IMG/VR virus record: IMGVR_UViG_3300033141_003544
Span: 1 to 64,000 of that record
DNA length: 64,000 bases
Direction: 5' to 3' (one strand)
Origin: a virus
Translations under genes and position numbers: made by a program
The notes under the pieces: model-generated
The model's input: the letters and a program-made list of their open reading frames with translations, nothing else
What the model was told of the DNA's origin: nothing
Database searches by the model: none
Part shown: in pieces, positions 4,776 to 61,645 of the stretch
How positions within the stretch are numbered: the first letter of the stretch is position 1
Layout: each line of letters starts with the position of its first letter

Positions 4776-5699
4776 ATGGCCAGTGGGACAATTGTGAGGC
4801 GGAATTTGATTCCAATCCCAAAAATCACTATTACTGATTCAGATGGTTCTGTATATGATTTGACTAATCATACCATAAGATTTATTATGTGGTTTACAGA
4901 TACACTTCAAGTTGCTTTGGACACAGATGATACTTCTGTACATTTATCAGGGTCAAATGTAGATAGAATACAAACAAATGATGTTTTACTGGTGGACCAT
5001 GAAAGAATGTTAGTGACGGCAATTCCAACACAACCTCTTGATACAGATGATACTATAGTTACTGTAACTAGAGGTTATGATATACCTGCTACTGCTGGAT
5101 ATGTTTTAGGTTCAACTGATGTTGATGGAGCTGGAACAAATGATCCTTATGCATTAAGTACTGATTGTGAATTTGATATAGCAATAGACGGTGGAACAGC
5201 AACTACTATAACTATGACATTAGCTGCTACCGAAGGGAATACCACTATGAGTCACTTGGTTGCTGATATGAATACTGCTTTAACTGCGGCAGGAGTAACT
5301 TGTACTGCTTCTGCAGTATTTGATAAATTCAAATTTACCTCACCTACAGTTGGAACAGATTCTTCTGTTGTAATTAGCAGTCCAGACACAATATCGACAA
5401 ATGAGTTAGGTTTGATTGCAGCTACAGGTAACGGGACCGCAACTCAGTCTACAGATAATGTAGCTCATACAGTTAATAGTATGGTAAGGGTTATAAAAAT
5501 AGAGACAGATGCGGAGATTGATTCACTTACAACAGGTACTATAAAATATCAATGGATATCAGGTGATACAGATAAGACAGGGGAATATCAAATGCAATTT
5601 GATATTACTAATCCAAACGGTAAGAAATTTACAATACCTGTTGCATCTCCTTCAACATTTACTGTAAATATTATCGAAGACGCAAATGATTATATTTAA
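4776..5699 (+). CDS. BppU N-terminal-like (baseplate upper/Ig-fold) protein with large internal insertion
   Basis: ITITDSDGSVYDLTNHTIRFIM ... GTIKYQWISGDTDKTGEYQMQFDIT...KFTIP; AAGGAG SD. Confidence 0.6.
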   Translation: MASGTIVRRNLIPIPKITITDSDGSVYDLTNHTIRFIMWFTDTLQVALDTDDTSVHLSGSNVDRIQTNDVLLVDHERMLVTAIPTQPLDTDDTIVTVTRGYDIPATAGYVLGSTDVDGAGTNDPYALSTDCEFDIAIDGGTATTITMTLAATEGNTTMSHLVADMNTALTAAGVTCTASAVFDKFKFTSPTVGTDSSVVISSPDTISTNELGLIAATGNGTATQSTDNVAHTVNSMVRVIKIETDAEIDSLTTGTIKYQWISGDTDKTGEYQMQFDITNPNGKKFTIPVASPSTFTVNIIEDANDYI

Positions 5700-5710
5700 G
5701 GAGAAATTAA

Positions 5711-6523
5711 ATGAGTAAATCATTAAAAGCAGCCAAACCCCGTATGTATTCTACATATTATCAAGTAATAAATGTTTTAAAAGAGATCTCTACTGAAGTT
5801 ATTAATATTTCAAGTGACCCTAATAATATAGTTAAAATGGCTGGACAGATTGAATGTGAAATAGTGAAAGCAGATTCAATTATTACAGCCGCTTTAAATT
5901 CAATATACAGTATTAACAACTTAAGAACAACTCCGTGGACCACTCCTGTTGTACCGGATCCAAATAATGACGGAGATATGACTTTAGTGGGGATATCTAC
6001 TGGATCTGACATAGCAAATGCTTATACAGCTACTTGGATTGTTGAATTTACATCTACTGAAGACTTTACTTTGACAAGTAGTTTAGAGGGAGCTCAGGGG
6101 ACTTTTACTATTTCATCTGACGCAGCTTCTACTAATAATGATATTATTATAGGGTCTAATGCTTGGATTGCGGGTGATGCAAGTCCTGTTGATGGAGATA
6201 AATACTATTTTTCCGTAATTGATTCTCAACCATTAATCAACTATATAAGTGCTAGATTAGCTGCTGGATTTGTATTAGAGAGTATTTTTACTTCTGAGAC
6301 ACCTAATGAAAATGCCAGTAGTAAAACATTAAAAGACGAAGCAACACATTGGTTAGAAAAGTTACAAAGACCTAACGATGAAACGGGGGCTAGGTTAACA
6401 TCATATAGTGTGGAAGATATAGAAAGTTTACACGTAGATTATCATATCACGGATTATGGGGTAGATGATAGTAGTTATTCTGAAACAACCCCTTATAGAA
6501 GTGGGGTAGGAAGTGAGATTTAA
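5711..6523 (+). CDS. putative head-tail adaptor/connector protein with inserted domain
   Basis: YSTY.QV, IVKADSIITAAL, LINYISARLAA, EATHWLEKL helical pattern; position before terminator and tube genes. Confidence 0.5.
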   Translation: MSKSLKAAKPRMYSTYYQVINVLKEISTEVINISSDPNNIVKMAGQIECEIVKADSIITAALNSIYSINNLRTTPWTTPVVPDPNNDGDMTLVGISTGSDIANAYTATWIVEFTSTEDFTLTSSLEGAQGTFTISSDAASTNNDIIIGSNAWIAGDASPVDGDKYYFSVIDSQPLINYISARLAAGFVLESIFTSETPNENASSKTLKDEATHWLEKLQRPNDETGARLTSYSVEDIESLHVDYHITDYGVDDSSYSETTPYRSGVGSEI

Positions 6524-30105: not shown

Positions 30106-30446
30106 TTCCTCCCCATTTTAGATCTTTCTTCTTGTTTTTGGACGGCCATTGTTTGCATCATTTTTTCAGACTCTCTAATTAGTTGTTTTCGAACTTCCTC
30201 AATCATTATCTTGCTTTCTAAATGTCTAACTAGTTCCCTCATAATTGCAACAGCCTGACTTTCACCTATCTGGTTTAATTTCATGTCAACTTGGTTTTTG
30301 GTATTAGTAAAAATCATTATTACTAGTTTACCTTCCTCCGTAGGAGCTTTTAATTTGTCTAATAACTCTTGTTGTTGTTTTTCTTCAAGTATTTTTTTCT
30401 TTTTCTCTAATGGGGTTAACTGTGGTCTTTTTTTATTTTTTTTCAT
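30102..30446 (-). CDS. hypothetical protein
   Basis: 114 aa, stop overlaps next start. Confidence 0.6.
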   Translation of the reverse strand: MKKNKKRPQLTPLEKKKKILEEKQQQELLDKLKAPTEEGKLVIMIFTNTKNQVDMKLNQIGESQAVAIMRELVRHLESKIMIEEVRKQLIRESEKMMQTMAVQKQEERSKMGRK

Positions 30447-30775
30447 TATACTTTACCTATTTTAATGTCCTCAAAAACCTGTGGGATTGTTTTTTTCATT
30501 GTTCTTAATAATATTGCTCGATAGACAGTGATAGTTCTTGGTTCTAGTATACACCAAATATTGTCTCTTATTCCTTGATAAACATATAGACGGTTATTTG
30601 TTTCGATAACGGAGAGATGAAGAAATTCAGCTTCTTTAGATTCTATGAATTTTTTTATAAAGTAAACTCTATCTTCAAAAGATAATTTATCTGGTGATTC
30701 TTTTTTTCTTTCAATAGTACCTAATTTTTTCATTTTTTCCCCTTTTATTGACTTTGATTTTAAATGGTATTTCAT
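30446..30775 (-). CDS. hypothetical protein
   Basis: 109 aa; ATGA overlap with sbcC remnant. Confidence 0.55.
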   Translation of the reverse strand: MKYHLKSKSIKGEKMKKLGTIERKKESPDKLSFEDRVYFIKKFIESKEAEFLHLSVIETNNRLYVYQGIRDNIWCILEPRTITVYRAILLRTMKKTIPQVFEDIKIGKV

Positions 30776-30957
30776 ACAAAACTTATACCGTTTTCTCTTT
30801 TTACTATTATAGTTTCTTTAAACCTATCTTTTAACTCATTTGAATGAGAGATAACAAACTTTAACCCACTTACTTCTTTTAAGATTCTAAAAAACAATTC
30901 TGTTCCTGTTGCATCTAATGTGTCTACAACCTCATAACTTGTTTTAGTTACTCTCAT
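30772..30957 (-). pseudogene. displaced 3' end of sbcC (53 codons from Walker B Glu to stop)
   Basis: EVVDTLDATG...KRENGISFV is 36/53 identical, ungapped, to the SbcC C-terminus. Confidence 0.9.
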
Positions 30958-31675
30958 ATTTTTTAATCAACCCTTTAGCAAAAAGTAATAGGTCTTTTTC
31001 TGGATAATTACTTTTTAAACTATTTTCCCATTTACAAAGTAGTTGAATATTATTTTTATTATAACCTAATGAACTATCTACTCTATCTAAAGACATTTTA
31101 TTTTTAGTATTATTAATTAATGACATCTTTAATCCTGATATAGTACTGGAACCTTTTTGATTCTTATATAAATCAAATAAATCTTCTTTAGTTATTGAAA
31201 ATTCCATATTTCTTTTCTTAGCTCTAGATTTAGCACTTGACCATAATTGTCTTAATTGTCTTAAAAGATCTCCATTTCTGGCTTCCCGATAAATTTTCTG
31301 TTTTAATAAAATTTTTGAGCGTTCAACATCATTAAAATTGCTGCGTCTTTCTTTTGCCCTTTTATGACGTTTTTCTATATAGATAGGATCTTTACCTCTT
31401 TCTTTCCTATAACTATTACTTTTATCTAATCGCTCTCTATGTTTTACAGGTTCTTCTAATTTTTGTTTTTTATGTCTTTCTCTTCTTAATTTCTTTTGCC
31501 TGTTTTGATGTTCATTCCATTTTTCTGTATCCAGTTTTCTTTCTTTGTATATTTTATGTCTACATTCTTTACACCGAGTTTGTAATCCATTTTTAGACCT
31601 CTTACTAATACCAAACTTTGATCTTTCTTTTAATTCTCCGCATTTACTGCATTTAACTTTTTCATTACTAGACAA
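30944..31675 (-). mobile_element. free-standing HNH-like homing endonuclease
   Basis: CSKC...CKEC N-terminus; AKSRAKKRNMEFSIT, SLDRVDSSLGYNKNNIQLLC..N..K. Confidence 0.85.
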
Positions 31676-33848
31676 AACTTACACCATTTTCCCTTTTAAC
31701 TATTATTTTATTTTTAAATTTCGAAGCCAATTCGTTATTATGACTTACTATTAACTTTAATCCACTTATTTCCTTTAAAATCTTAAAGAATAATTCAACC
31801 CCAATCGCGTCCAAATTATCAGCTATTTCGTCAAGCATCAAGAACCTAAACATACTATAACCTCGGTTTAATGTTAATTGTCTCAAAGCAAATCCTATAC
31901 AAACTGCTATTCTTTTTTGACCTCCAGCAGAAAATGTTTCAAGGGGAGCTTTTACTCCCATTTCATCAATAACAGAGAGATTAAATTTTGGCTTGTATTC
32001 ATCTTCACTAGTTTTTGGACGTTTCTTTCTTGTTAAAGTATCTAATTGAATTTTAATGCCCACTTCAAATAAATCTAAATATAAATTAACTTGTTTTTCA
32101 AATGCAGGTAGAAAATCCTCTATCATCCATCTTCTAATAGTTTTGAAATGTTTTTCCCAGAAATAAAAAACATCAAACTCTTTTTGAATACCCTCTAATT
32201 CCTTTCTCATCTCTTCTAATCTACTTAACTCTTTTCTTCTTTGACTTATTAGAACTTTTAAACGGGATAAATGAAGTTTTAATTGGTCAACTTTTAATTT
32301 CTTTTCTTTAATCTTTTCTTGTAAATCTTCAAAACCTTCAACAGATAGACGTTCTAACCCTTTCAGTCTTAAAGTTAATTGGAATTTTTTTTCTTTGTAT
32401 TCTTTTTTAGTTTTTATTGTTGAAATTTCTTTTTCTTTTATTTTGTCTTGAGCTTCTTTAATCTTGTCCGACAAACTTTCTTTATCTGACATACTTTCTT
32501 GAACTGTTTCTAATCTTTCCTGTATAGTTCTTATATTAGTTTCATCATTTGAAAGAGTTCTAATATTATTTTCTATTGTAAATATTTGATTATCTATATT
32601 TCTAAGTTTCTTATTTTCATTTTTGATTTTTAGTTCAAGTTCGTGTTTTTTACTAATTAATTCTTCTTTATTTAATGTGTCCAAAATTCCTTTATTTCTA
32701 TTCCACATTAATTGTATTTTACAGTTAGGGCATTTCCAATTTTTATCACCTTTTAACATTCCTTCTATATCAGATAAGTCCCTTTCTAAATAGTTTATTT
32801 GTTCTTTTATATCAAATTTCCTATTTCCAAGAGTTTGCATATCTTTTTCAAGAGTTTTGGTTTGCTCTAATATTTCAGATAAACTAGGTAAACTATACAG
32901 TGTCTCTTTGCATTTTTTGATTGTTTTTTCTGATGCTTTAATATTTTCTATTCTTTTTGTAAATACTTCTATATGTGATTGAGTAAACTCAATAAATTCT
33001 TTTAAATTAAAGTCAGCTTTTTCATCTAAAATATCTATTTCTTTTATACTTTCAATCAGTTGTAGTTTTTCGTTTATCTTTTCATATTTACTTTCTAATT
33101 CATGGATCTCCGTTCTTAATTCGTTTAAATTTGCAATTTTTATTTCGTATTCTTCTTGAAAAGAAATCTCTCTTTCTGAATCTTCCGATTTTAATTTTTG
33201 TTCTAAATATTCTATCTGTCCCCTAGTATTATCTAAATTACTTTTTATATTATTTTTATATCCGTTAGCTCTATTACTACATTTATCAAGAATATCCAAA
33301 TTTAAAAACCTGGATATAAGTGCCATTCTATCCTCAGAAGTGGCAGCTTTTCCTGCAAAGGCTTCGATTGCATCTATTGAAAAATAGACTGTATTTAGAA
33401 AATCATTAAAAAACTCTTTATTGTCTTCTTGAATACCAAGGAAATTCATTAGACTTCTTTGGGTTTGAGTATCAGTTAATTTAGTATGTTCATTGTCATT
33501 TACCCAAAACCTTAATTTAGTCTCTTTACCTCTTTTTCTTATTATTTTTAAACTATTTTCTTCGTCTTTTAATACAAGTTCAACGGAACATTGTTTTGTA
33601 CCTCTTCTTATTAAATCATCTAAGGCCACTCTACTATCTGGAACTCTATTAAATATGGCCCAACTTATAGCATCAAATATGGAAGTTTTACCACTCATAT
33701 TTGAGTCAGCACCACTAGAATCAAAATTTAAACCTAATACAAGAATACTCTCTTCATCTTTGTATTGGTCAAAATTGATTTCTACACTCTCTCCAAACCC
33801 TTTAAAATTTGAACATCTTATTTTACTTGGTCTCATTTGGGTTCTCAA
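31668..33848 (-). CDS. sbcC: SbcC/Rad50-like SMC ATPase
   Basis: NFKGF, Walker A NMSGKTS, coiled coils, CPNC hook, FSAGGQ signature, MLDE Walker B, VSH. Confidence 0.92.
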   Translation of the reverse strand: MRTQMRPSKIRCSNFKGFGESVEINFDQYKDEESILVLGLNFDSSGADSNMSGKTSIFDAISWAIFNRVPDSRVALDDLIRRGTKQCSVELVLKDEENSLKIIRKRGKETKLRFWVNDNEHTKLTDTQTQRSLMNFLGIQEDNKEFFNDFLNTVYFSIDAIEAFAGKAATSEDRMALISRFLNLDILDKCSNRANGYKNNIKSNLDNTRGQIEYLEQKLKSEDSEREISFQEEYEIKIANLNELRTEIHELESKYEKINEKLQLIESIKEIDILDEKADFNLKEFIEFTQSHIEVFTKRIENIKASEKTIKKCKETLYSLPSLSEILEQTKTLEKDMQTLGNRKFDIKEQINYLERDLSDIEGMLKGDKNWKCPNCKIQLMWNRNKGILDTLNKEELISKKHELELKIKNENKKLRNIDNQIFTIENNIRTLSNDETNIRTIQERLETVQESMSDKESLSDKIKEAQDKIKEKEISTIKTKKEYKEKKFQLTLRLKGLERLSVEGFEDLQEKIKEKKLKVDQLKLHLSRLKVLISQRRKELSRLEEMRKELEGIQKEFDVFYFWEKHFKTIRRWMIEDFLPAFEKQVNLYLDLFEVGIKIQLDTLTRKKRPKTSEDEYKPKFNLSVIDEMGVKAPLETFSAGGQKRIAVCIGFALRQLTLNRGYSMFRFLMLDEIADNLDAIGVELFFKILKEISGLKLIVSHNNELASKFKNKIIVKRENGVSFV

Positions 33849-33851
33849 TAA

Positions 33852-34964
33852 CTATAGTTCTTGTATTTCTTTCAATATTTTTAAACCTGTTGATAGATAC
33901 TCAGGGTCATCTTCTTTTTTTTCTTTTTTTATAACATGTTTTATAGCATCTTCAAACTTACTATCCAATTTAACTTCTGGAACTCTTAATGTTACTTTGT
34001 CAGAATTAATAAAATCAAAAAATATTTTTAATGCATTATTCTCTACCATACTGTCTGTAATCCTCTTTTTGTCATAACTATGATACCACGCGTTACTCCC
34101 AATAAAAATAACTTTAATTATTGCACCTTTCAAATCCCCTTCTTTTTCTATTCTGTCAAAAATATCTATGCCACCTTCTCTTATTTCCCATTGTAAAAAA
34201 GGTCTATCATTTACTGGTATAAATTCATCAATTATTTCTCCATTATCTTTTAAACATGAATACATAAAACCTTTTGTTTCCATCCGCTCACCCATGTCTT
34301 TTTTAGCAATGGAACCTGTATAGTAAATATTAGAACCAACTTTTTGATGTTTGTGGTAATGCCCTAAATAAACCCTCTTTTGATTTTTAAAAACTAAAGG
34401 ATCTATTACATCATCTTCTACAAATTCGTGAGCTCCTAATTTAGCTCCACTGACTGCTAAATGTCCAAATACAATATAACCCTTATAATCTTTTATTGTT
34501 TTTTCTATTGAGTTTGGGGAGGGGTCCCATGGGAGCATTAGAATTTTGAAGTTTTCTCTTTTATATTCCCAAGGTTTATCAACGATTATAATGTTATCTC
34601 CTTTCATAATCTCTAGTAATTCTGATTCACCTGATAGATTGTAAGCTTTACCGTCTGTATCATGATTGCCTATAATAATAAATACCTTTATTTTTGCCTC
34701 AACTAACGGTTTGATAGTTTTTACAAATAAGGATTTTAGTTTTTCTGGAGCATTTACTTTATCAAAAATATCTCCCGCTATTACAAAAAAATCTACTTTC
34801 TTTTTGATTGCATAATCCATGGCTTCCCATAGATTATCTAATCTATCGATTAATCTTACATCCCATAAATCCTCAAGACCAAAAATGACAGTTGGAATCA
34901 TTTTTGAATGTGTATAATTACGTTTAAGTTCTAAATCACTACAAACCGCCCAACTTGCTATCAT
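33852..34964 (-). CDS. sbcD: SbcD/Mre11-like nuclease
   Basis: AGDIFD, IGNHD, GH, LGHYH, YTGSI; motif I is SDLE rather than SDxH; adjacent to sbcC. Confidence 0.88.
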   Translation of the reverse strand: MIASWAVCSDLELKRNYTHSKMIPTVIFGLEDLWDVRLIDRLDNLWEAMDYAIKKKVDFFVIAGDIFDKVNAPEKLKSLFVKTIKPLVEAKIKVFIIIGNHDTDGKAYNLSGESELLEIMKGDNIIIVDKPWEYKRENFKILMLPWDPSPNSIEKTIKDYKGYIVFGHLAVSGAKLGAHEFVEDDVIDPLVFKNQKRVYLGHYHKHQKVGSNIYYTGSIAKKDMGERMETKGFMYSCLKDNGEIIDEFIPVNDRPFLQWEIREGGIDIFDRIEKEGDLKGAIIKVIFIGSNAWYHSYDKKRITDSMVENNALKIFFDFINSDKVTLRVPEVKLDSKFEDAIKHVIKKEKKEDDPEYLSTGLKILKEIQEL

Positions 34965-34970
34965 ATATAT

Positions 34971-35525
34971 TTACCTTTCCAATATTTTTTTTATTTTTTC
35001 ATCTATATTGCAAAACTCTTTTGTAAAGTCACTTAGTTTACAAATACAATAATCTTTCCATTGTATCATATTCAATTTCAGTGAATCTAACTCTATATTT
35101 AAAACCTTACTATATATAATATATTCCGGTAGATACTTTTTTGTAAAAATTATTACAGGGTATTTTATTATACCCGTTTTATTGTATAGTTCTTCAGCCT
35201 CATTTCTTATTTCTTCAAACCACTTTAGCAAAGGGCTTGTACTGTCTTTGTTTTTATTCCCTAATAGTTGATTAAAATCCCATATCTCAGTATTCTTACA
35301 AGAAACAACAAAAGGGAAGTCATTAGGACCTACAATATCCCCAACAGTAATAGCTTTTTTTGTTTTCCAATTAAGTCCTCCAGAACATGGAACAACATGA
35401 AACTCCCCCTTACCTCCAGTCCACCACTCATCTAAGATTTTAGCAACAACCCTTTCAAAATTTCTTCCCTTACGTTTGCTCTTTTTTCCCACTGCTACTT
35501 TAATAGGGTTTTTAATTTTTGTCAT
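34971..35525 (-). CDS. putative Holliday junction resolvase (PD-(D/E)xK)
   Basis: SKRKGRNFERVVA, SGG, GDI, VSCKN. Confidence 0.75.
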   Translation of the reverse strand: MTKIKNPIKVAVGKKSKRKGRNFERVVAKILDEWWTGGKGEFHVVPCSGGLNWKTKKAITVGDIVGPNDFPFVVSCKNTEIWDFNQLLGNKNKDSTSPLLKWFEEIRNEAEELYNKTGIIKYPVIIFTKKYLPEYIIYSKVLNIELDSLKLNMIQWKDYCICKLSDFTKEFCNIDEKIKKILER

Positions 35526-41304: not shown

Positions 41305-44300
41305 TCAAGATATAAGCTGTGGTTCATCCTTCCATCTATTACTTACAATACCTTCTACTGGTGTATATAAACCTGGTACTATTTCTTTTTCCATCTCTTC
41401 TTTTATAATTGCCATAAGCTCTTCTAGTTCCTCTTTGACTGCATTATGATAAATTGCATCATGCACCGAAAATAAAAATCTTGACTTAAAGTTTTTTTCT
41501 TTTATTCTTTTGTTAATTCTAATATTAGCTAGTTGTAATAAATCACTTCCCAATCCCTGAACTAATGAGTTAACAGCTTCTCTTTCTGCTTCCTTTATTA
41601 ATTTATTCCCGTCTTTTGTCAAAGGGTCAGCGTAAATATTAGGCAATCTTCTAATTCTACCCAATGGACTTACAACATATCCATTTTTATGAACAAAAGC
41701 TTTAACCATCTTTACCCATTTAGCTACACCTTTATAAGTGTTCCAAAAAGTATTTATACAGTGCTGAACTAATTCTTCATCTACTTTCTCATCTTCTGGG
41801 TCCAGTTTTTCATTTATACTTTTAGTTAATTCAGTAGCGCCTCCCAAATAGGTTGTCCCAAAATTAGTTGAATTATGTATTAATATACCGTTTGCTATAA
41901 AATGATGAAATTCATTATTAACCATTAAATCCCAAACTTCCTCTTCTTCTTTTATTTCTAATTTCTTTATTCTTTCTATTTTTGAACTCAGGTCAAAAAT
42001 ATTATTGACATTCCAGTCTCTAACTGATTGAAATTCTTTATTTATATTCATTATCTTCAGCATCTTATTAATTGAACTTAGAGAAATTATTAATCTCCAT
42101 TTTGTTTCTTTAACTTTTCTTAAATTTGAAAATACCCCCACAGATAATAATAGTTGTTGTAAACCTTTACAAAGGTTCTCTGAGCTAGAGCTGTAAACTA
42201 TACTTATTGTCTTATTACTAGTTTTCCGTTTTGTTGTGTGAATTGAACCATCTCCTTTAAACAGAGATCTAATAAACTTTATTTTATTATTATAACTACT
42301 TCTCATAATTATTTTAGGGATATCTTTTTTATTTGATTTAAGTTTAAAATCTAAAATTTCGGCAATCCATGTAGTAAACTGTTTGCTAAAAATGGAAGCT
42401 TTTTTGTAAACATGAGTAGGATAACTTTTATTTTTTACTCTTCCTATTTTTACTTCACCAAATTTTTCCAATAAAAGAACAATATCATCAAAATCTTTTG
42501 AAGAGTCGTCCACCCTTTGTCCTATAGTAATTCCATAAGGATTGGGTGTTATTTTTATTTGGCCTTCTGAAATAATCCAACCTAATAAACTAGATAGATC
42601 TCCAGTTAAATACTTGGGATAAGTTAATTTTTTATAACCGATGTCTTTTGGTTTTGGTAATTTTATTTTAGTAATAGATGTGTCATACCCTTCAATAGGT
42701 ACAAATAATCTATCTCCAATTTTAAGATCAGAAACTTTTTTTTCAATTATTTTATAATCCCTTTTTCTCGTAAACGGGGTTGTGGGGAGTTTATGATTCT
42801 CAGATAGTTTTAACTCTATACCGTTCTTCAAAACTATATTTATTATTTTTTTCTTTTCTTTTTGTTTTATTAAATAAACTTCAGGATTATCCCATAAGCC
42901 TAAATGATCTCCTGGTTTTATCTCTTCTATAGGTATTAATCCTTTTTCTAAAATAGGGATTAATTGTCCTCTTGGTAAGCATTTTGCAATTTTGCGTTGT
43001 CTCACTGTAACCATTTCAGGTTTAATTCTAAAAACCTCACAAGCCATTTTTATATGAAGGTCTTCGTTATCTTTGTAAGCCTTTAACATAACTGGGTCTT
43101 GAGAATACCAAGCAATGATCCTCAATTCTATCTGAGAATAATCATGTTCTAAAAAATAATTTCCAGAGTCTGCAATATATTGATGTCTTATTTCTTTTTC
43201 TCTGGGAATTGTATGGACAGGTACACCTCCTTCACGAACGGAAGGGGAGGCTAAACGGCCACTTACAGCCCCTGTCAGTTTCATATTGTAATGGATTCTC
43301 CCATCATCGTCTACAAAAGTTAATACAGGATTCAAATAAGTAGATATCATTTTTAATTTGTTTTTATACCTAACCGCATCTGCACATATTGGATATTTTG
43401 TAGCTAATAAATTTAATGTCTCTTTATCAGTTTTATATTGATTTGTTTTGGTTTTCCCTTTATGTGGAATACCCATTTTATCGAACAAAGCCTCACCCAA
43501 TTGTTTCCCAGAACCTATGTTAAATTCATAACCTACTTGTTTATAAATTTCTTGTGCTAACTCTTCTGCATCTTTTTCGTATTGTTTTATAACTTTTTTT
43601 GTTTGTTTTAGGTCTACACTTATGCCTTTTTGTTCTGCTTCTTTATAAATATTGTGCATGGGTAAATACAGGTCAATATATAAGTCCAACAGTTTTGGTT
43701 TTTTGTTTATCTCTTCCCATAGATCTCCAGCTAACCTAAAAGTTACATCTACATCACTACATCCATACTCTTTTAATAATGCTATAGGAGCTTTATAAAG
43801 TTGACCTTCTTCATCCTCTTTTTCAGACAAATGTTGCTTTATCTTATGACTATAGCCCCTTTTATCCTCATACCTTCTATCGGCTTGATTTTTAATTGAG
43901 TGTAGTCTATTTTCATCCAACAGATAATCTAACATGACTACATCCATAGTCAAATTTTCTATTTTACAATCCCAGTGGTATTCCATAAACTTAGAATCAA
44001 ATTTATAATTAGCACCTGCGACTTTTTTATTTGGATCAGATACTATTTCTCGTAAACTTCCTATAATATCTTCTTGATGTTCCCCCCAAAATTTATACAT
44101 AAAAAACTCTCCAATAATATAATCTTTCTTTTTCTTTATTACTCTTTCGATTTTCACATTATATTTCTCTAAATCTCTTTCTTTAAATAAATCTTCATCT
44201 ATATCTTTATTTATAAGCAATGGAATATAAATACCTTGTTTTTCTTCCCATGAAAAACTAATACCTATAATTTGATCTGTTCTATAATTCAAACCAGTAG

Positions 44301-44982
44301 TTTCAATATCTATTGCTAATTTCTCTTTTTTCTTTAAAATTTGAAATATTTCATCAAATTCTTCAATGGTTTTAATCAATCTATAGTCATATACTGTCTC
44401 ATTTGCAGCAATTGGAGTACCATCCATTATTCTTTTGACTTCTTTTAAATCAGATAGCCAAACAGTCTCTTCAGCTGGGTTTCTTAAAATATACGCAGGA
44501 TGGTATGTAGGAAGTATTGGAATTTTATAACCTTCACGAGTATATATATGACCTCTGATATTAGTAATTTTAGTTTTTCCTATTAAAACTTTCGAAGCTA
44601 CGTTTCCCAGAGGTATTATACATTTGAGGGAGTTAAGTGATATTAAATAATTTAAGATAGTATCAAAATTAGATTTGCAAGTTTTAATCTCTGTATTACC
44701 AGGAGTCGTATTACCAGGGAGTCTACAGCAACATACATTAAAAAATACACAATCCTGATCATCATCAATACCGATAGTCCTTAATTCTTTTCTTAGCCGT
44801 TGTCCCGACCTACCTTGAAAAACTTTACCTGTTCTCTCTTCTTCACCACCAGGAGCTTCTCCTATAAAGGCCAGTTTGGGTTTATCAAAATTTCCAGTAG
44901 CATTATAAGGATTATAGTGAGAGGGATCATACAAAGGACAAGATTTGCATTTGTCAAGAGGTAGTATTAGGTGGTTTTTCAC
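41305..44982 (-). CDS. polA: family A DNA polymerase with N-terminal family-4 uracil-DNA glycosylase domain, 3'-5' exonuclease and an intein
   Basis: CKSC, GEAPG, CCCR, TYHPA (UDG4); DIETTG, YGCSD (exo); DYSQIELR, AK|STNFG, VHD (pol motifs A,B,C). Confidence 0.93.
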   Translation of the reverse strand: MKNHLILPLDKCKSCPLYDPSHYNPYNATGNFDKPKLAFIGEAPGGEEERTGKVFQGRSGQRLRKELRTIGIDDDQDCVFFNVCCCRLPGNTTPGNTEIKTCKSNFDTILNYLISLNSLKCIIPLGNVASKVLIGKTKITNIRGHIYTREGYKIPILPTYHPAYILRNPAEETVWLSDLKEVKRIMDGTPIAANETVYDYRLIKTIEEFDEIFQILKKKEKLAIDIETTGLNYRTDQIIGISFSWEEKQGIYIPLLINKDIDEDLFKERDLEKYNVKIERVIKKKKDYIIGEFFMYKFWGEHQEDIIGSLREIVSDPNKKVAGANYKFDSKFMEYHWDCKIENLTMDVVMLDYLLDENRLHSIKNQADRRYEDKRGYSHKIKQHLSEKEDEEGQLYKAPIALLKEYGCSDVDVTFRLAGDLWEEINKKPKLLDLYIDLYLPMHNIYKEAEQKGISVDLKQTKKVIKQYEKDAEELAQEIYKQVGYEFNIGSGKQLGEALFDKMGIPHKGKTKTNQYKTDKETLNLLATKYPICADAVRYKNKLKMISTYLNPVLTFVDDDGRIHYNMKLTGAVSGRLASPSVREGGVPVHTIPREKEIRHQYIADSGNYFLEHDYSQIELRIIAWYSQDPVMLKAYKDNEDLHIKMACEVFRIKPEMVTVRQRKIAKCLPRGQLIPILEKGLIPIEEIKPGDHLGLWDNPEVYLIKQKEKKKIINIVLKNGIELKLSENHKLPTTPFTRKRDYKIIEKKVSDLKIGDRLFVPIEGYDTSITKIKLPKPKDIGYKKLTYPKYLTGDLSSLLGWIISEGQIKITPNPYGITIGQRVDDSSKDFDDIVLLLEKFGEVKIGRVKNKSYPTHVYKKASIFSKQFTTWIAEILDFKLKSNKKDIPKIIMRSSYNNKIKFIRSLFKGDGSIHTTKRKTSNKTISIVYSSSSENLCKGLQQLLLSVGVFSNLRKVKETKWRLIISLSSINKMLKIMNINKEFQSVRDWNVNNIFDLSSKIERIKKLEIKEEEEVWDLMVNNEFHHFIANGILIHNSTNFGTTYLGGATELTKSINEKLDPEDEKVDEELVQHCINTFWNTYKGVAKWVKMVKAFVHKNGYVVSPLGRIRRLPNIYADPLTKDGNKLIKEAEREAVNSLVQGLGSDLLQLANIRINKRIKEKNFKSRFLFSVHDAIYHNAVKEELEELMAIIKEEMEKEIVPGLYTPVEGIVSNRWKDEPQLIS
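41872..42981 (-). mobile_element. intein (370 aa) with LAGLIDADG endonuclease in polymerase motif B
   Basis: Starts CLPRGQLI, LSENH, LLGWIISEG, FIRSLFKGDG, ends FIANGILIHN followed by Ser. Confidence 0.93.
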
Positions 44983-45281: not shown

Positions 45282-45707
45282 TTATACTTTTTCTATTTTA
45301 ATATCTTTTAATGTTTTTACAAATAAATCTCTATCCCTTGATATATAATCTAATTTATAATAAATTTTCTTTACATTGGCTGCTATAAGTATTTTATAAC
45401 AATTGATACAAGGATTATGTGTAACATAACAAATTAATGTTTTATACCTTTTAGGTAAGTTTGCAACTGCTCCCGCTTCACTATGGATAGTCCTAATACA
45501 ATGGTTTGCATTGTGTTCTTCACTAAGTAAACAACCTACATCTTCACAATGTGGACTGCCTGATGGAGCTGAATTATAACCTACTGAAACGACTCGATTA
45601 TCTTCAGTAGTTAAAACACACCCTACTTTTAGTTTCCCACACGTACCACGTTCTTTTACTATTTCAGCCATTTTCATAAAATATTCTATTCTAGTTAAGC
45701 GGCCCAT
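45282..45707 (-). CDS. dCMP deaminase (intact copy)
   Basis: VGCVL, GYN, HSE and PCINC zinc motifs; GGAGG SD before ATG at 45707. Confidence 0.9.
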   Translation of the reverse strand: MGRLTRIEYFMKMAEIVKERGTCGKLKVGCVLTTEDNRVVSVGYNSAPSGSPHCEDVGCLLSEEHNANHCIRTIHSEAGAVANLPKRYKTLICYVTHNPCINCYKILIAANVKKIYYKLDYISRDRDLFVKTLKDIKIEKV

Positions 45708-46500
45708 AGACCCCTCCAAAAATTTTTCTTTTCCTATCCAATGAAATTGTTGAACCCTTATATAAATACACCATAAATTTCTCTACCTCGTTCATTGAAT
45801 TAACCCTATAACTATATAAAGGGTTTTTTCTTCCTTTTATTGAACAATTAACCCATCCAAAACCTACTATTTCTTTAATGAAATTCATAACTGATTCAGT
45901 TCCTGCAATAGATACTATCCCTCTTTTGTATTTATTAAGATGAATACAACCATCACCGTCGAAATACCCTCTTATCCAATGTCTAATCAAATCCATTGAA
46001 ACATTTTTTGGGGGCTCTAATACCAAAGACTTTCTTTCTAAAATACCTTTATTGATTAAATCATAATACATTTTATTTGAGCTTAACAGATATCTGTATC
46101 GATAGAAGACTTTACCGTTTAATTTTCTTGATCTCTTACGAGGTTCAAAATTGGCTTCAATTGCTTTTCCAAATTTCTTCAAATGTTTTAAATCTTTTTC
46201 AGCTAAACTTAAATTTATTCTCTTCCTTTTATATCTTGGAGGTGGTGTATATAAACTCCCATCTGCTGCAATCATTCCCAACCAATAAGCTTTTTCTTCA
46301 TTATCAATTGTTTCAAAATAATTTTCATTAAAGGATTTCCATTTACCTTTAGTAGGTAAATGAGATAAGTTATATTCTTTTATTCTTTTTGCAATAGCTT
46401 GTCGTTTCTTTAACCCAAATACCTTTGCTATTTCTTTTTGAGAATGTTTACCGTCTAATAGTTTTTTAAGTTCTTCTGAATTAACTTCTACTTTCTTCAT
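45691..46500 (-). mobile_element. free-standing LAGLIDADG homing endonuclease with N-terminal HTH
   Basis: AYWLGMIAADGS and WIRGYFDGDG; LDRK near C-terminus. Confidence 0.9.
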
Positions 46501-46865
46501 TCATCTCTTTCCTCTGGAATCAAAGTCATGCTATGGGCTTGATCTTCACCGTTAACTTTTAATCCTTTAATTAATTTTAATTTTACTAATATTTTTTTGA
46601 ATTTAGCTTTTTCAATACAGTGTACAGTTCTTATACAATGACCTTTATACAACAAACAACCTTTATCAAGACAGTGGTCTTGTCCTGGAGGGGCCCCGTT
46701 GTAACCAATTGCCGTTATTCTGTTATTTCTAGTTATCACACACCCTGCTTTTATATGACATGTTGACCTTTCTGCAGCTAAGTCTGCTATTTTTAGATAG
46801 TAAGTGATTCTATTCATTCTAGTTCTGTTGATAGCTGGTTTTGTCCTGTCCACAAGATTCCTCAA
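46497..46865 (-). pseudogene. truncated 5' copy of dCMP deaminase
   Basis: AERSTC, AGCVI, GYNGAP, HCIRTVH then unrelated sequence; no HxE Glu, no PCxxC. Confidence 0.85.
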
Positions 46866-60862: not shown

Positions 60863-61645
60863 TTATTTAGACGGATATAAAGGCTTTATTGCCTTTTTTA
60901 ATTCACGCTTTGTTAATTTCCGCAATACCTTGAATTTCTTAACCCGAAATTTACCATCTGATAATATTGGAATAGCCACAATGTCTTTTGCCGTAAACTC
61001 AACTTCAATATACATCCGATTTTCTATATCCAAATTAGAATTTTGTAAACACCGTTCAAGTGTGGCAACATTTAATCCTTTCCCACAGTTTTCTCGTTCA
61101 TCTGCATTACAATCTAGTTCTCTATATATTTTGCCAATCTCATAACGCTTGTTTTGATATAGAGAGATGCCACATTTATTCAAACATTTGTATGCAATTA
61201 ATTTGCCTGGCTGAGATTTGAGAATATTAAGTGGAGAACGAATATGAAAAGGAATATTTTTTGCGCCAGTAAGGTCTGCATACCTAAGATCTGCGTCATT
61301 GAAATCTACGTCACTAAAATTTGCACCCCTAAAGTTTGCACCTCTAAGATTTGTATAACTAAGATCTGTTTTATTAAAGTTTGTTTCATTAAGTTTTGCA
61401 TAATTAAGATTTGCAACACTAAGATTTGCATAGCTAAGGTCTGTTTTATTAAGATTTGCATAACTAAGATTTGCATAACTAAGGTTTGCGCCACTAAGGT
61501 CTGCGTTACTAAGGTCTGCGTTACTAAGGTTTAATTTCTCACAAGAATAACCATCATACCCACTTACGCTTTCTTTATTTGCAACACGCTCCAGAAATTC
61601 TTTTTTGGTTAGCTTTTTTATTTTAGTTGGCTGTTTTTTTGCCAT
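60863..61645 (-). CDS. pentapeptide-repeat protein
   Basis: Consecutive A(D/N)Lxx repeats, then YK...CGKGLNVA...GKFRV domain. Confidence 0.9.
   Translation of the reverse strand: MAKKQPTKIKKLTKKEFLERVANKESVSGYDGYSCEKLNLSNADLSNADLSGANLSYANLSYANLNKTDLSYANLSVANLNYAKLNETNFNKTDLSYTNLRGANFRGANFSDVDFNDADLRYADLTGAKNIPFHIRSPLNILKSQPGKLIAYKCLNKCGISLYQNKRYEIGKIYRELDCNADERENCGKGLNVATLERCLQNSNLDIENRMYIEVEFTAKDIVAIPILSDGKFRVKKFKVLRKLTKRELKKAIKPLYPSK

Follow-up and report, generated by a model that had tools for sequence, protein, structure and literature searches.

In the genome of an uncultured phage (IMG/VR virus record IMGVR_UViG_3300033141_003544; 105,577 base pairs [bp], 31% guanine plus cytosine [GC], estimated 92% complete), the last 53 codons and the stop codon of sbcC, the gene for an SbcC/Rad50-like ATPase, are present twice on the minus strand, at positions 31668 to 31829 and 30772 to 30933, with an endonuclease gene between the two copies. 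The stretch analyzed here, referred to as the window, is the first 64 kilobases (kb) of this record. We call the copy that ends sbcC the attached tail and the copy beyond the endonuclease gene the remnant. Our favored explanation, which we consider likely, is that an intron-less homing cassette of 896 bp, consisting of a replacement tail and the endonuclease gene, was inserted into sbcC at the Walker B Asp-Glu codons and displaced the resident tail.

The duplication of the sbcC end around the endonuclease gene, described in an earlier note made from the sequence alone, was recovered in full. BLASTP aligned the two tails without gaps, with 36 of 53 residues identical and 44 of 53 positive (E value 5e-28), and the interval from the Glu codon to the stop is exactly 162 nucleotides (nt) in each copy. 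The copies lie 896 nt apart. At the nucleotide level, 105 of 162 positions (65%) are identical, distributed over the three codon positions as 43, 42 and 20 of 54, and the 45-nt flanks are unrelated on both sides of the repeat (12/45 and 15/45 identical). The copies share no identical run longer than 10 nt, and the first 21 nt past the junction differ at 10 positions. When the whole 105.6-kb genome was compared with itself by tblastx, the tail pair had the second-highest bit score (93.6 bits) of all non-self pairs. The similarity begins at Glu674 of the Walker B Asp-Glu pair, and the Asp673 codon GAC (31830 to 31832) faces TAT in the remnant. The break of the duplication is thus at the Walker B Asp|Glu boundary. 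The earlier note had placed the breakpoint within the Asp codon, a placement that depends on a single shared A. An assembly artefact was considered and rejected: copies that are 65% identical are not strain variants, the reading frames interlock cleanly, and the SbcC and endonuclease proteins are found on two contigs.

Synonymous sites have reached saturation between the two tails, whose protein sequences are still 68% identical. Of the 36 conserved residues with a choice of synonymous codons, 17 have the same codon in both tails, compared with 18.6 +/- 2.8 expected when synonymous codons are drawn at random by the usage of this genome. The duplication is therefore not a recent local one, and one of the tails came from a long-diverged lineage. 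Against a profile of 132 tails from the family, the remnant scored 84.5 bits and the attached tail 83.9 bits, both in the top quartile of genuine members. The saturation together with the high scores of both copies suggested divergence under selection in separate lineages before the tails were joined, since a detached fragment that stayed this good during synonymous randomization would itself need selection. The simple reading is that each tail served as a working gene end in a phage lineage of its own while the two diverged, and that they came together recently. The proposal of the earlier note that the present SbcC is the product of a chimeric gene is, on these codon comparisons, well supported. 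Codon usage and GC content failed to separate the two tails (codon-usage percentiles of 0.26 and 0.52, both ordinary for this genome).

The region of interest is a densely packed operon in which all genes are on the minus strand. Its features are as follows:

34971-35525, minus strand: gene for a PDDEXK nuclease, first in the operon as listed here.
33852-34964, minus strand: gene for an SbcD-like nuclease subunit, next to sbcC on its upstream side (Pfam Metallophos, E 3e-12; phrog_100, SbcD-like, E 2.5e-45).
31668-33848, minus strand: intact gene for the SbcC/Rad50-like ATPase of 726 amino acids (phrog_77, E 1.7e-63; Pfam AAA_23 and SMC_N).
31668-31829, minus strand: attached tail, from Glu674 onward 53 codons and a TAG stop, in unbroken frame with the rest of sbcC.
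30944-31675, minus strand: free-standing endonuclease gene, 243 amino acids, TTG start (phrog_1035, phrog_3322 and phrog_3118).
30934-31829, minus strand: putative inserted cassette, 896 bp, comprising the attached tail, the endonuclease gene and 10 nt past its stop.
30772-30933, minus strand: remnant tail, homologous to SbcC residues 674 to 726, with 53 codons and a TGA stop (BLASTP, E value as above; phrog_77, E 1.9e-8).
30772-30957, minus strand: open reading frame (ORF) of 61 codons that encloses the remnant (ORF calls).
30446-30775, minus strand: downstream ORF of 109 codons with no assigned function (ORF call), starting at an ATG that overlaps the TGA of the remnant.

The cassette limits were defined as the sequence between the last codon of the sbcC body and the first homologous codon of the remnant. 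The stop of sbcC overlaps the TTG start of the endonuclease gene by 8 nt, the 3' end of the endonuclease gene overlaps the ATG of the remnant ORF by 14 nt, and the TGA of the remnant and the ATG of the next ORF overlap as ATGA. The last two overlaps are those that had been claimed in the earlier note. The downstream ORF at 30446 to 30775 had no Pfam or PHROG match and no homologue among 70 related loci (described below). Beyond the remnant ORF there are two ORFs without assigned function, followed by a gene for a DegT aminotransferase.

The attached tail completes a working sbcC gene in frame. All SbcC/Rad50 motifs are found in one chain (Walker A GKT at 53 to 55, zinc hook CPNC at 373 to 376, signature at about S640 to G643, Walker B D673-E674 and H-loop H703), and the SbcD phosphoesterase gene lies directly upstream. 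The 726-residue protein aligned end to end with its relatives, with D673, E674, D677, D680, G683, H703 and G722 kept; the form predicted by the gene caller starts at Met5 and has 722 residues.

An exhaustive HMMER search returned 4619 relatives of SbcC at E<=1e-3, of which the nearest, P0002, P0006 and P0007, were 50%, 44% and 38% identical. Cultured phages gave no DNA match, and their SbcC proteins matched at only 22 to 31%. No close sbcC relative was found in scans of IMG/VR, JGI metagenomes and GTDB genomes with SbcC, P0002, P0006 and two small alignments as queries. With a wider alignment as query, we obtained 70 IMG/VR loci with sbcC relatives, all <=37% identical. The tail probe matched in 49 of these 70 fetched loci, and each of the 49 had a single copy of the tail. 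An endonuclease of the present kind was found downstream of sbcC in none of the 70.

We then analyzed the endonuclease that separates the two tails. The protein has an N-terminal zinc ribbon (C9, C12, C35 and C38), a basic helical region of about 90 residues and a C-terminal nuclease domain at about residues 140 to 243. Pfam gave no nuclease match and only a weak zinc ribbon; PHROGs assigned the protein to "endonuclease VII / HNH endonuclease" families. In an alignment of 20 members of the nuclease domain, R151, D197, R198, G204, Y205, N209 and N218 (full-length numbering) were invariant, and all are kept here; the key residues also include K221. The profile of the domain matched PacI (3ldy) at E 1e-4. 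An AlphaFold2 (AF2) model of the domain had a predicted local distance difference test (pLDDT) score of 94; the full-length model was poor (pLDDT 58), and only the domain model was usable. With the domain model, Foldseek ranked PacI at the top (probability 0.98, E 0.037), as did the VIA aligner (Z 7.8, root-mean-square deviation 3.6 A over 102 aligned residues), with other HNH nucleases next at Z 4 to 5.5. A VIA Z score below 8 is weak alone, and the PacI assignment holds because the profile match agrees with it. D197-R198, G204-Y205, N209 and N218 aligned to the DR...GY...N...N of PacI. By profile and by model, the endonuclease is a PacI-like group-20 His-Me finger (HNH-superfamily) nuclease, so the "HNH-like" label of the earlier note is appropriate in a wide sense. 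The predicted enzyme looks intact. PacI defines His-Me group 20, the members of which are mostly viral, lack the catalytic His and use a loop Tyr instead (PMC5714182), and PacI-like HNH enzymes of lactococcal Skunavirus phages are classed among the homing endonucleases (PMC12724721).

Many uncultured phages carry a relative of the nuclease domain. No flanking duplications were found at 31 loci that carry such relatives, which indicated that the duplicated-end layout is not a general trait of the enzyme family in that sample. On another viral contig (L055), a homologue of the PacI-like nuclease domain (5680 to 5904; 30% identity over 89 amino acids) immediately precedes an sbcC relative that starts at 5950. 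The same enzyme family is thus found there beside the same gene, but at the opposite end of the gene.

In the proposed mechanism, the target of the endonuclease would be the sbcC of co-infecting relatives that lack the enzyme gene, cut within or close to the stretch that codes for Walker B. Homing sites usually fall in highly conserved stretches, as the Walker B coding sequence is. Repair of the break off the donor genome would copy the cassette into the cut allele, where the incoming tail would fuse in frame to the resident gene body and SbcC would stay whole. The filled allele would be immune to further cutting, its site being split and the sequence after the junction differing as described above, and the shortness of the longest identical run would hinder loss of the cassette through repeat recombination. 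The resident tail would be pushed downstream and survive as the 53-codon remnant, undecayed most likely because the insertion is recent. In favor of the cassette, the two copies are exactly in register, and the duplication does not extend beyond the interval from Glu674 to the stop; furthermore, the attached tail and the endonuclease gene are joined by an overlapping stop and start, and the remnant keeps the junction with the downstream gene. The cassette reading is also supported by other homing-type insertions in the same genome, in a dCMP deaminase gene and as an intein in the polymerase PolA. The homing activity, the target site and the identity of the resident tail are inferred.

Which of the two tails is resident was addressed by comparison with relatives of SbcC. 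P0002 is identical to the remnant at 35 of 53 residues and to the attached tail at 31, P0006 at 33 and 29, and P0010 at 26 and 19, respectively; the remnant is also nearer for P0007, P0009, P0011 and P0012. Among the 20 best relatives, the remnant was the closer tail 14 to 5, so that the pattern named by the earlier note as contradicting its view, relatives matching the upstream tail better, was not seen. In the tree of the gene body, sbcC forms a clade with P0002 and P0006 (support 100/99). In the tail tree, both copies fall inside the P0002/P0006 clade as sisters to each other (support 85/81), the branch of the attached tail being the longer (0.23, against 0.13 for the remnant). That both tails lie in the narrow clade of the gene body is expected for homing between related co-infecting phages. 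Judged by these residue counts and branch lengths, the remnant is probably the original end of sbcC. The claim to this effect in the earlier note thus found some support in the nearest relatives, but the margin is small, and the tail tree cannot decide the polarity since the tails are sisters.

The opposite polarity, in which the attached tail is resident and the endonuclease gene was imported with the downstream tail fragment, appears unlikely. Such a structure may have arisen from a donor sbcC that was split at Walker B by the endonuclease, or through a long co-conversion tract from a donor that had the whole structure. The remnant has its own ATG, as would the C-terminal piece of a split gene, and fractured genes do occur in this genome (the helicase fragment ending LIDE and then Cys, described below). 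In addition, the tail tree is blind to which copy is native, and the codon usage of both tails is ordinary. However, the seven relatives listed above (P0002, P0006, P0007 and P0009 to P0012) are nearer to the remnant, which also has the shorter branch; the start of the endonuclease gene is physically fused to the attached tail; and the ATG of the remnant lacks a well-placed Shine-Dalgarno sequence.

The sister relationship of the tails would also be expected from an old in-place duplication whose copies then diverged within this lineage. We consider this highly improbable. It would require long purifying selection on a detached 53-codon fragment while its synonymous sites became saturated, it leaves the doubling of a 162-nt target around an endonuclease gene without a mechanism, and none of the 49 probe-matched loci (70 fetched) has a second tail.

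Several observations weigh against insertion of a cassette with displacement of the resident tail. The lean toward the remnant amounts to 3 to 4 residues of 53 and is not statistically firm (8 versus 4 informative sites relative to P0002, and the same relative to P0006), and the relatives that favor the remnant are not independent of each other. The tails are each other's nearest relatives, as noted above for an old duplication. No endonuclease-free close relative with its DNA context was found, P0002 and P0006 being known as proteins only, and we infer the empty alleles and the polarity of the event. The endonuclease itself has no homologue above 45% identity besides itself among 5.8 billion proteins, and its recent mobility is thus conjectural. 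The Cys that is nearly invariant in its family is Ser177 here, and cleavage by the enzyme is a prediction.

The remnant has not decayed. Its 53 codons are free of stops and frameshifts, and all family-invariant positions are kept, including the Asp residues of the D-loop and the His of the H-loop. The first 8 codons of the remnant ORF are unrelated to SbcC and overlap the 3' end of the endonuclease gene. No Shine-Dalgarno sequence is well placed for its ATG, the sole purine-rich motif being 14 to 19 nt away, and no longer proteins matching the 61-residue remnant were found in a search. Codon 15 of the downstream ORF is itself an ATG (30733), which follows an AAAGGGG motif at a distance of 6 nt; read from there, the ORF has 95 codons. 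Its true start may therefore be at 30733 rather than at the ATG that overlaps the stop of the remnant. There was no terminator-like site on the coding strand, and a scan for promoters and terminators was at chance level.

The remnant could also have been kept open by selection, either as a ribosome relay from the endonuclease gene to the downstream operon or because a small SbcC-tail peptide has a role of its own; if so, the cassette would be integrated into phage gene expression. We regard this as rather improbable. The unbroken chain of overlaps, the intact 53 codons with every family-invariant residue kept and the lack of a terminator-like site on the coding strand are all in line with it. 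On the other hand, the downstream ORF need not rely on coupling because it has the internal ATG with its own AAAGGGG, an intact remnant is equally expected from a recent insertion, an ATG ahead of the first upstream stop is not rare at 31% GC, and it is hard to see what 53 residues from an ATPase lobe would do on their own. The translational relay suggested in the earlier note is weakened by the internal start of the downstream ORF and by the poorly placed Shine-Dalgarno sequence of the remnant. A relay is possible but unsupported, and it is not needed, since a recent insertion explains the open frame equally well. Recent insertion, the other option in that note, fits the tail-profile scores, on which the remnant is no worse than the attached tail.

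Other homing elements were found in the same genome. An intact dCMP deaminase gene (45282 to 45719, minus strand) is preceded upstream by a LAGLIDADG endonuclease gene (45691 to 46500). Upstream of the latter is a 122-codon ORF (46497 to 46865, minus strand), the first ~82 residues of which match the first 79 of the deaminase (36/73 identical). The similarity stops at HCIRT(V/I)H, immediately ahead of the catalytic SE/HxE, where HxE is the zinc-ligand and catalytic motif. From the ORF comparison, the deaminase locus is the mirror image of the sbcC case, with the start of the gene duplicated instead of the end. Furthermore, a 1225-residue fusion of a uracil-DNA-glycosylase-like domain, a 3'-5' exonuclease and a family A DNA polymerase (41305 to 44982, minus strand) contains an intein, which itself has a LAGLIDADG domain (Pfam Intein_splicing and LAGLIDADG_3).

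Just past the end of the window (64232 to 65397, minus strand) is a second LAGLIDADG gene, a paralogue of the gene at 45691 to 46500 (36% identity over 106 amino acids). Beside it lies an ORF with ATPase/helicase sequence that ends in LIDE and is followed by Cys and intein-like sequence. Taken with the sbcC and deaminase loci and the PolA intein, this pair indicated that the phage is heavily colonized by homing elements sitting at catalytic motifs.

Gene hybrids made by mobile endonuclease ORFs (mORFs) are known from fungal mitochondria, in atp6 of Allomyces macrogynus, in atp6, atp9, cox2 and nad3 of Glomus sp., in atp9 of Rhizopus and in cox2 of Mortierella (PMC3630166), and C-terminal duplications also occur in Endoconidiophora (PMC6279837). 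In Glomus atp6, the nucleotide identity between the two ends is 63.5%, and the native and inserted ends of the Glomus and Allomyces hybrids were told apart with an endonuclease-free sister genome (PMC3630166). The sbcC locus resembles these hybrids in that the two divergent C-terminal ends, one of them in frame with the gene and putatively inserted, the other probably native and displaced, are separated by a free-standing endonuclease ORF, and also in that the ends have low nucleotide identity (65% here), the protein is conserved and the gene would stay functional without splicing. It differs in its host, which is a tailed phage, in its enzyme, which is a PacI-like His-Me nuclease rather than LAGLIDADG or GIY-YIG, and in its target, which is a DNA-repair ATPase. 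Unlike in Glomus and Allomyces, the ends cannot be distinguished here through an endonuclease-free sister genome. The sbcC case clearly has an mORF-type hybrid layout; its endonuclease family is less usual, and its target gene is new. In a full-text literature search, we found this layout described only in fungal mitochondria and not in phages, which is no proof of absence.

In T4-like phages, intron-less homing by the free-standing endonucleases SegB, SegF, SegG and MobE has been described, with co-conversion of homologous flanks (PMC2988022, PMC2330249 and PMC2790892). As in those cases, a free-standing phage endonuclease here adjoins, and presumably cuts in rivals, a conserved gene of DNA metabolism, and would spread with its flanks by double-strand-break repair. 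We know of no T4 case of intron-less homing for which a duplicated gene end left behind has been described; here, in contrast, the displaced gene end persists beside the cassette.

Like PacI (PDB 3ldy and 3m7k), the endonuclease has Asp-Arg where the canonical HNH motif has Asp-His, and the Gly-Tyr of the loop and two Asn residues are kept. Unlike PacI, to which it is only 21% identical, it has the N-terminal zinc ribbon and the basic helical region of about 90 residues. PacI acts in restriction, at a palindromic site of 8 bp, whereas the phage enzyme would act in homing.

If the cassette reading is right, neither an intron nor an intein is needed for a homing endonuclease to invade an essential-type phage gene at a catalytic motif, provided that it brings along a recoded version of the gene part that it displaces. 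The sbcC locus together with the mirror-image deaminase locus suggests that this strategy may be common in phages. Such cassettes would yield chimeric genes, small spurious ORFs and local phylogenetic conflict, all of which should be expected in annotation and in phage phylogenies. In addition, the endonuclease may prove to be a site-specific nuclease of the PacI-like kind, with a target that can be predicted.

Other repeats were observed in the record. At its start (1 to 262), a 129-bp tandem repeat of about 2 copies (86 to 91% matches) probably reflects a protein module that is repeated within a coding region. A tandem array at 61260 to 61532 has nested periods of 15, 60 and 75 nt (74 to 84% matches) and resembles a pentapeptide-type repeat within a gene. 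Outside the window, a zinc-ribbon ORF of 67 residues (93523 to 93726), in the minus-strand region 92964 to 93726, is ~66% identical to the C-terminal 53 residues of its 189-residue neighbor (92964 to 93533), and this pair has no endonuclease between its members. Also outside the window, three copies of an element of ~75 to 80 nt (81131 to 81212, 84948 to 85031 and 87492 to 87576) lie on the same strand at spacings of 2.5 to 3.8 kb, with translations that are 80 to 100% identical.

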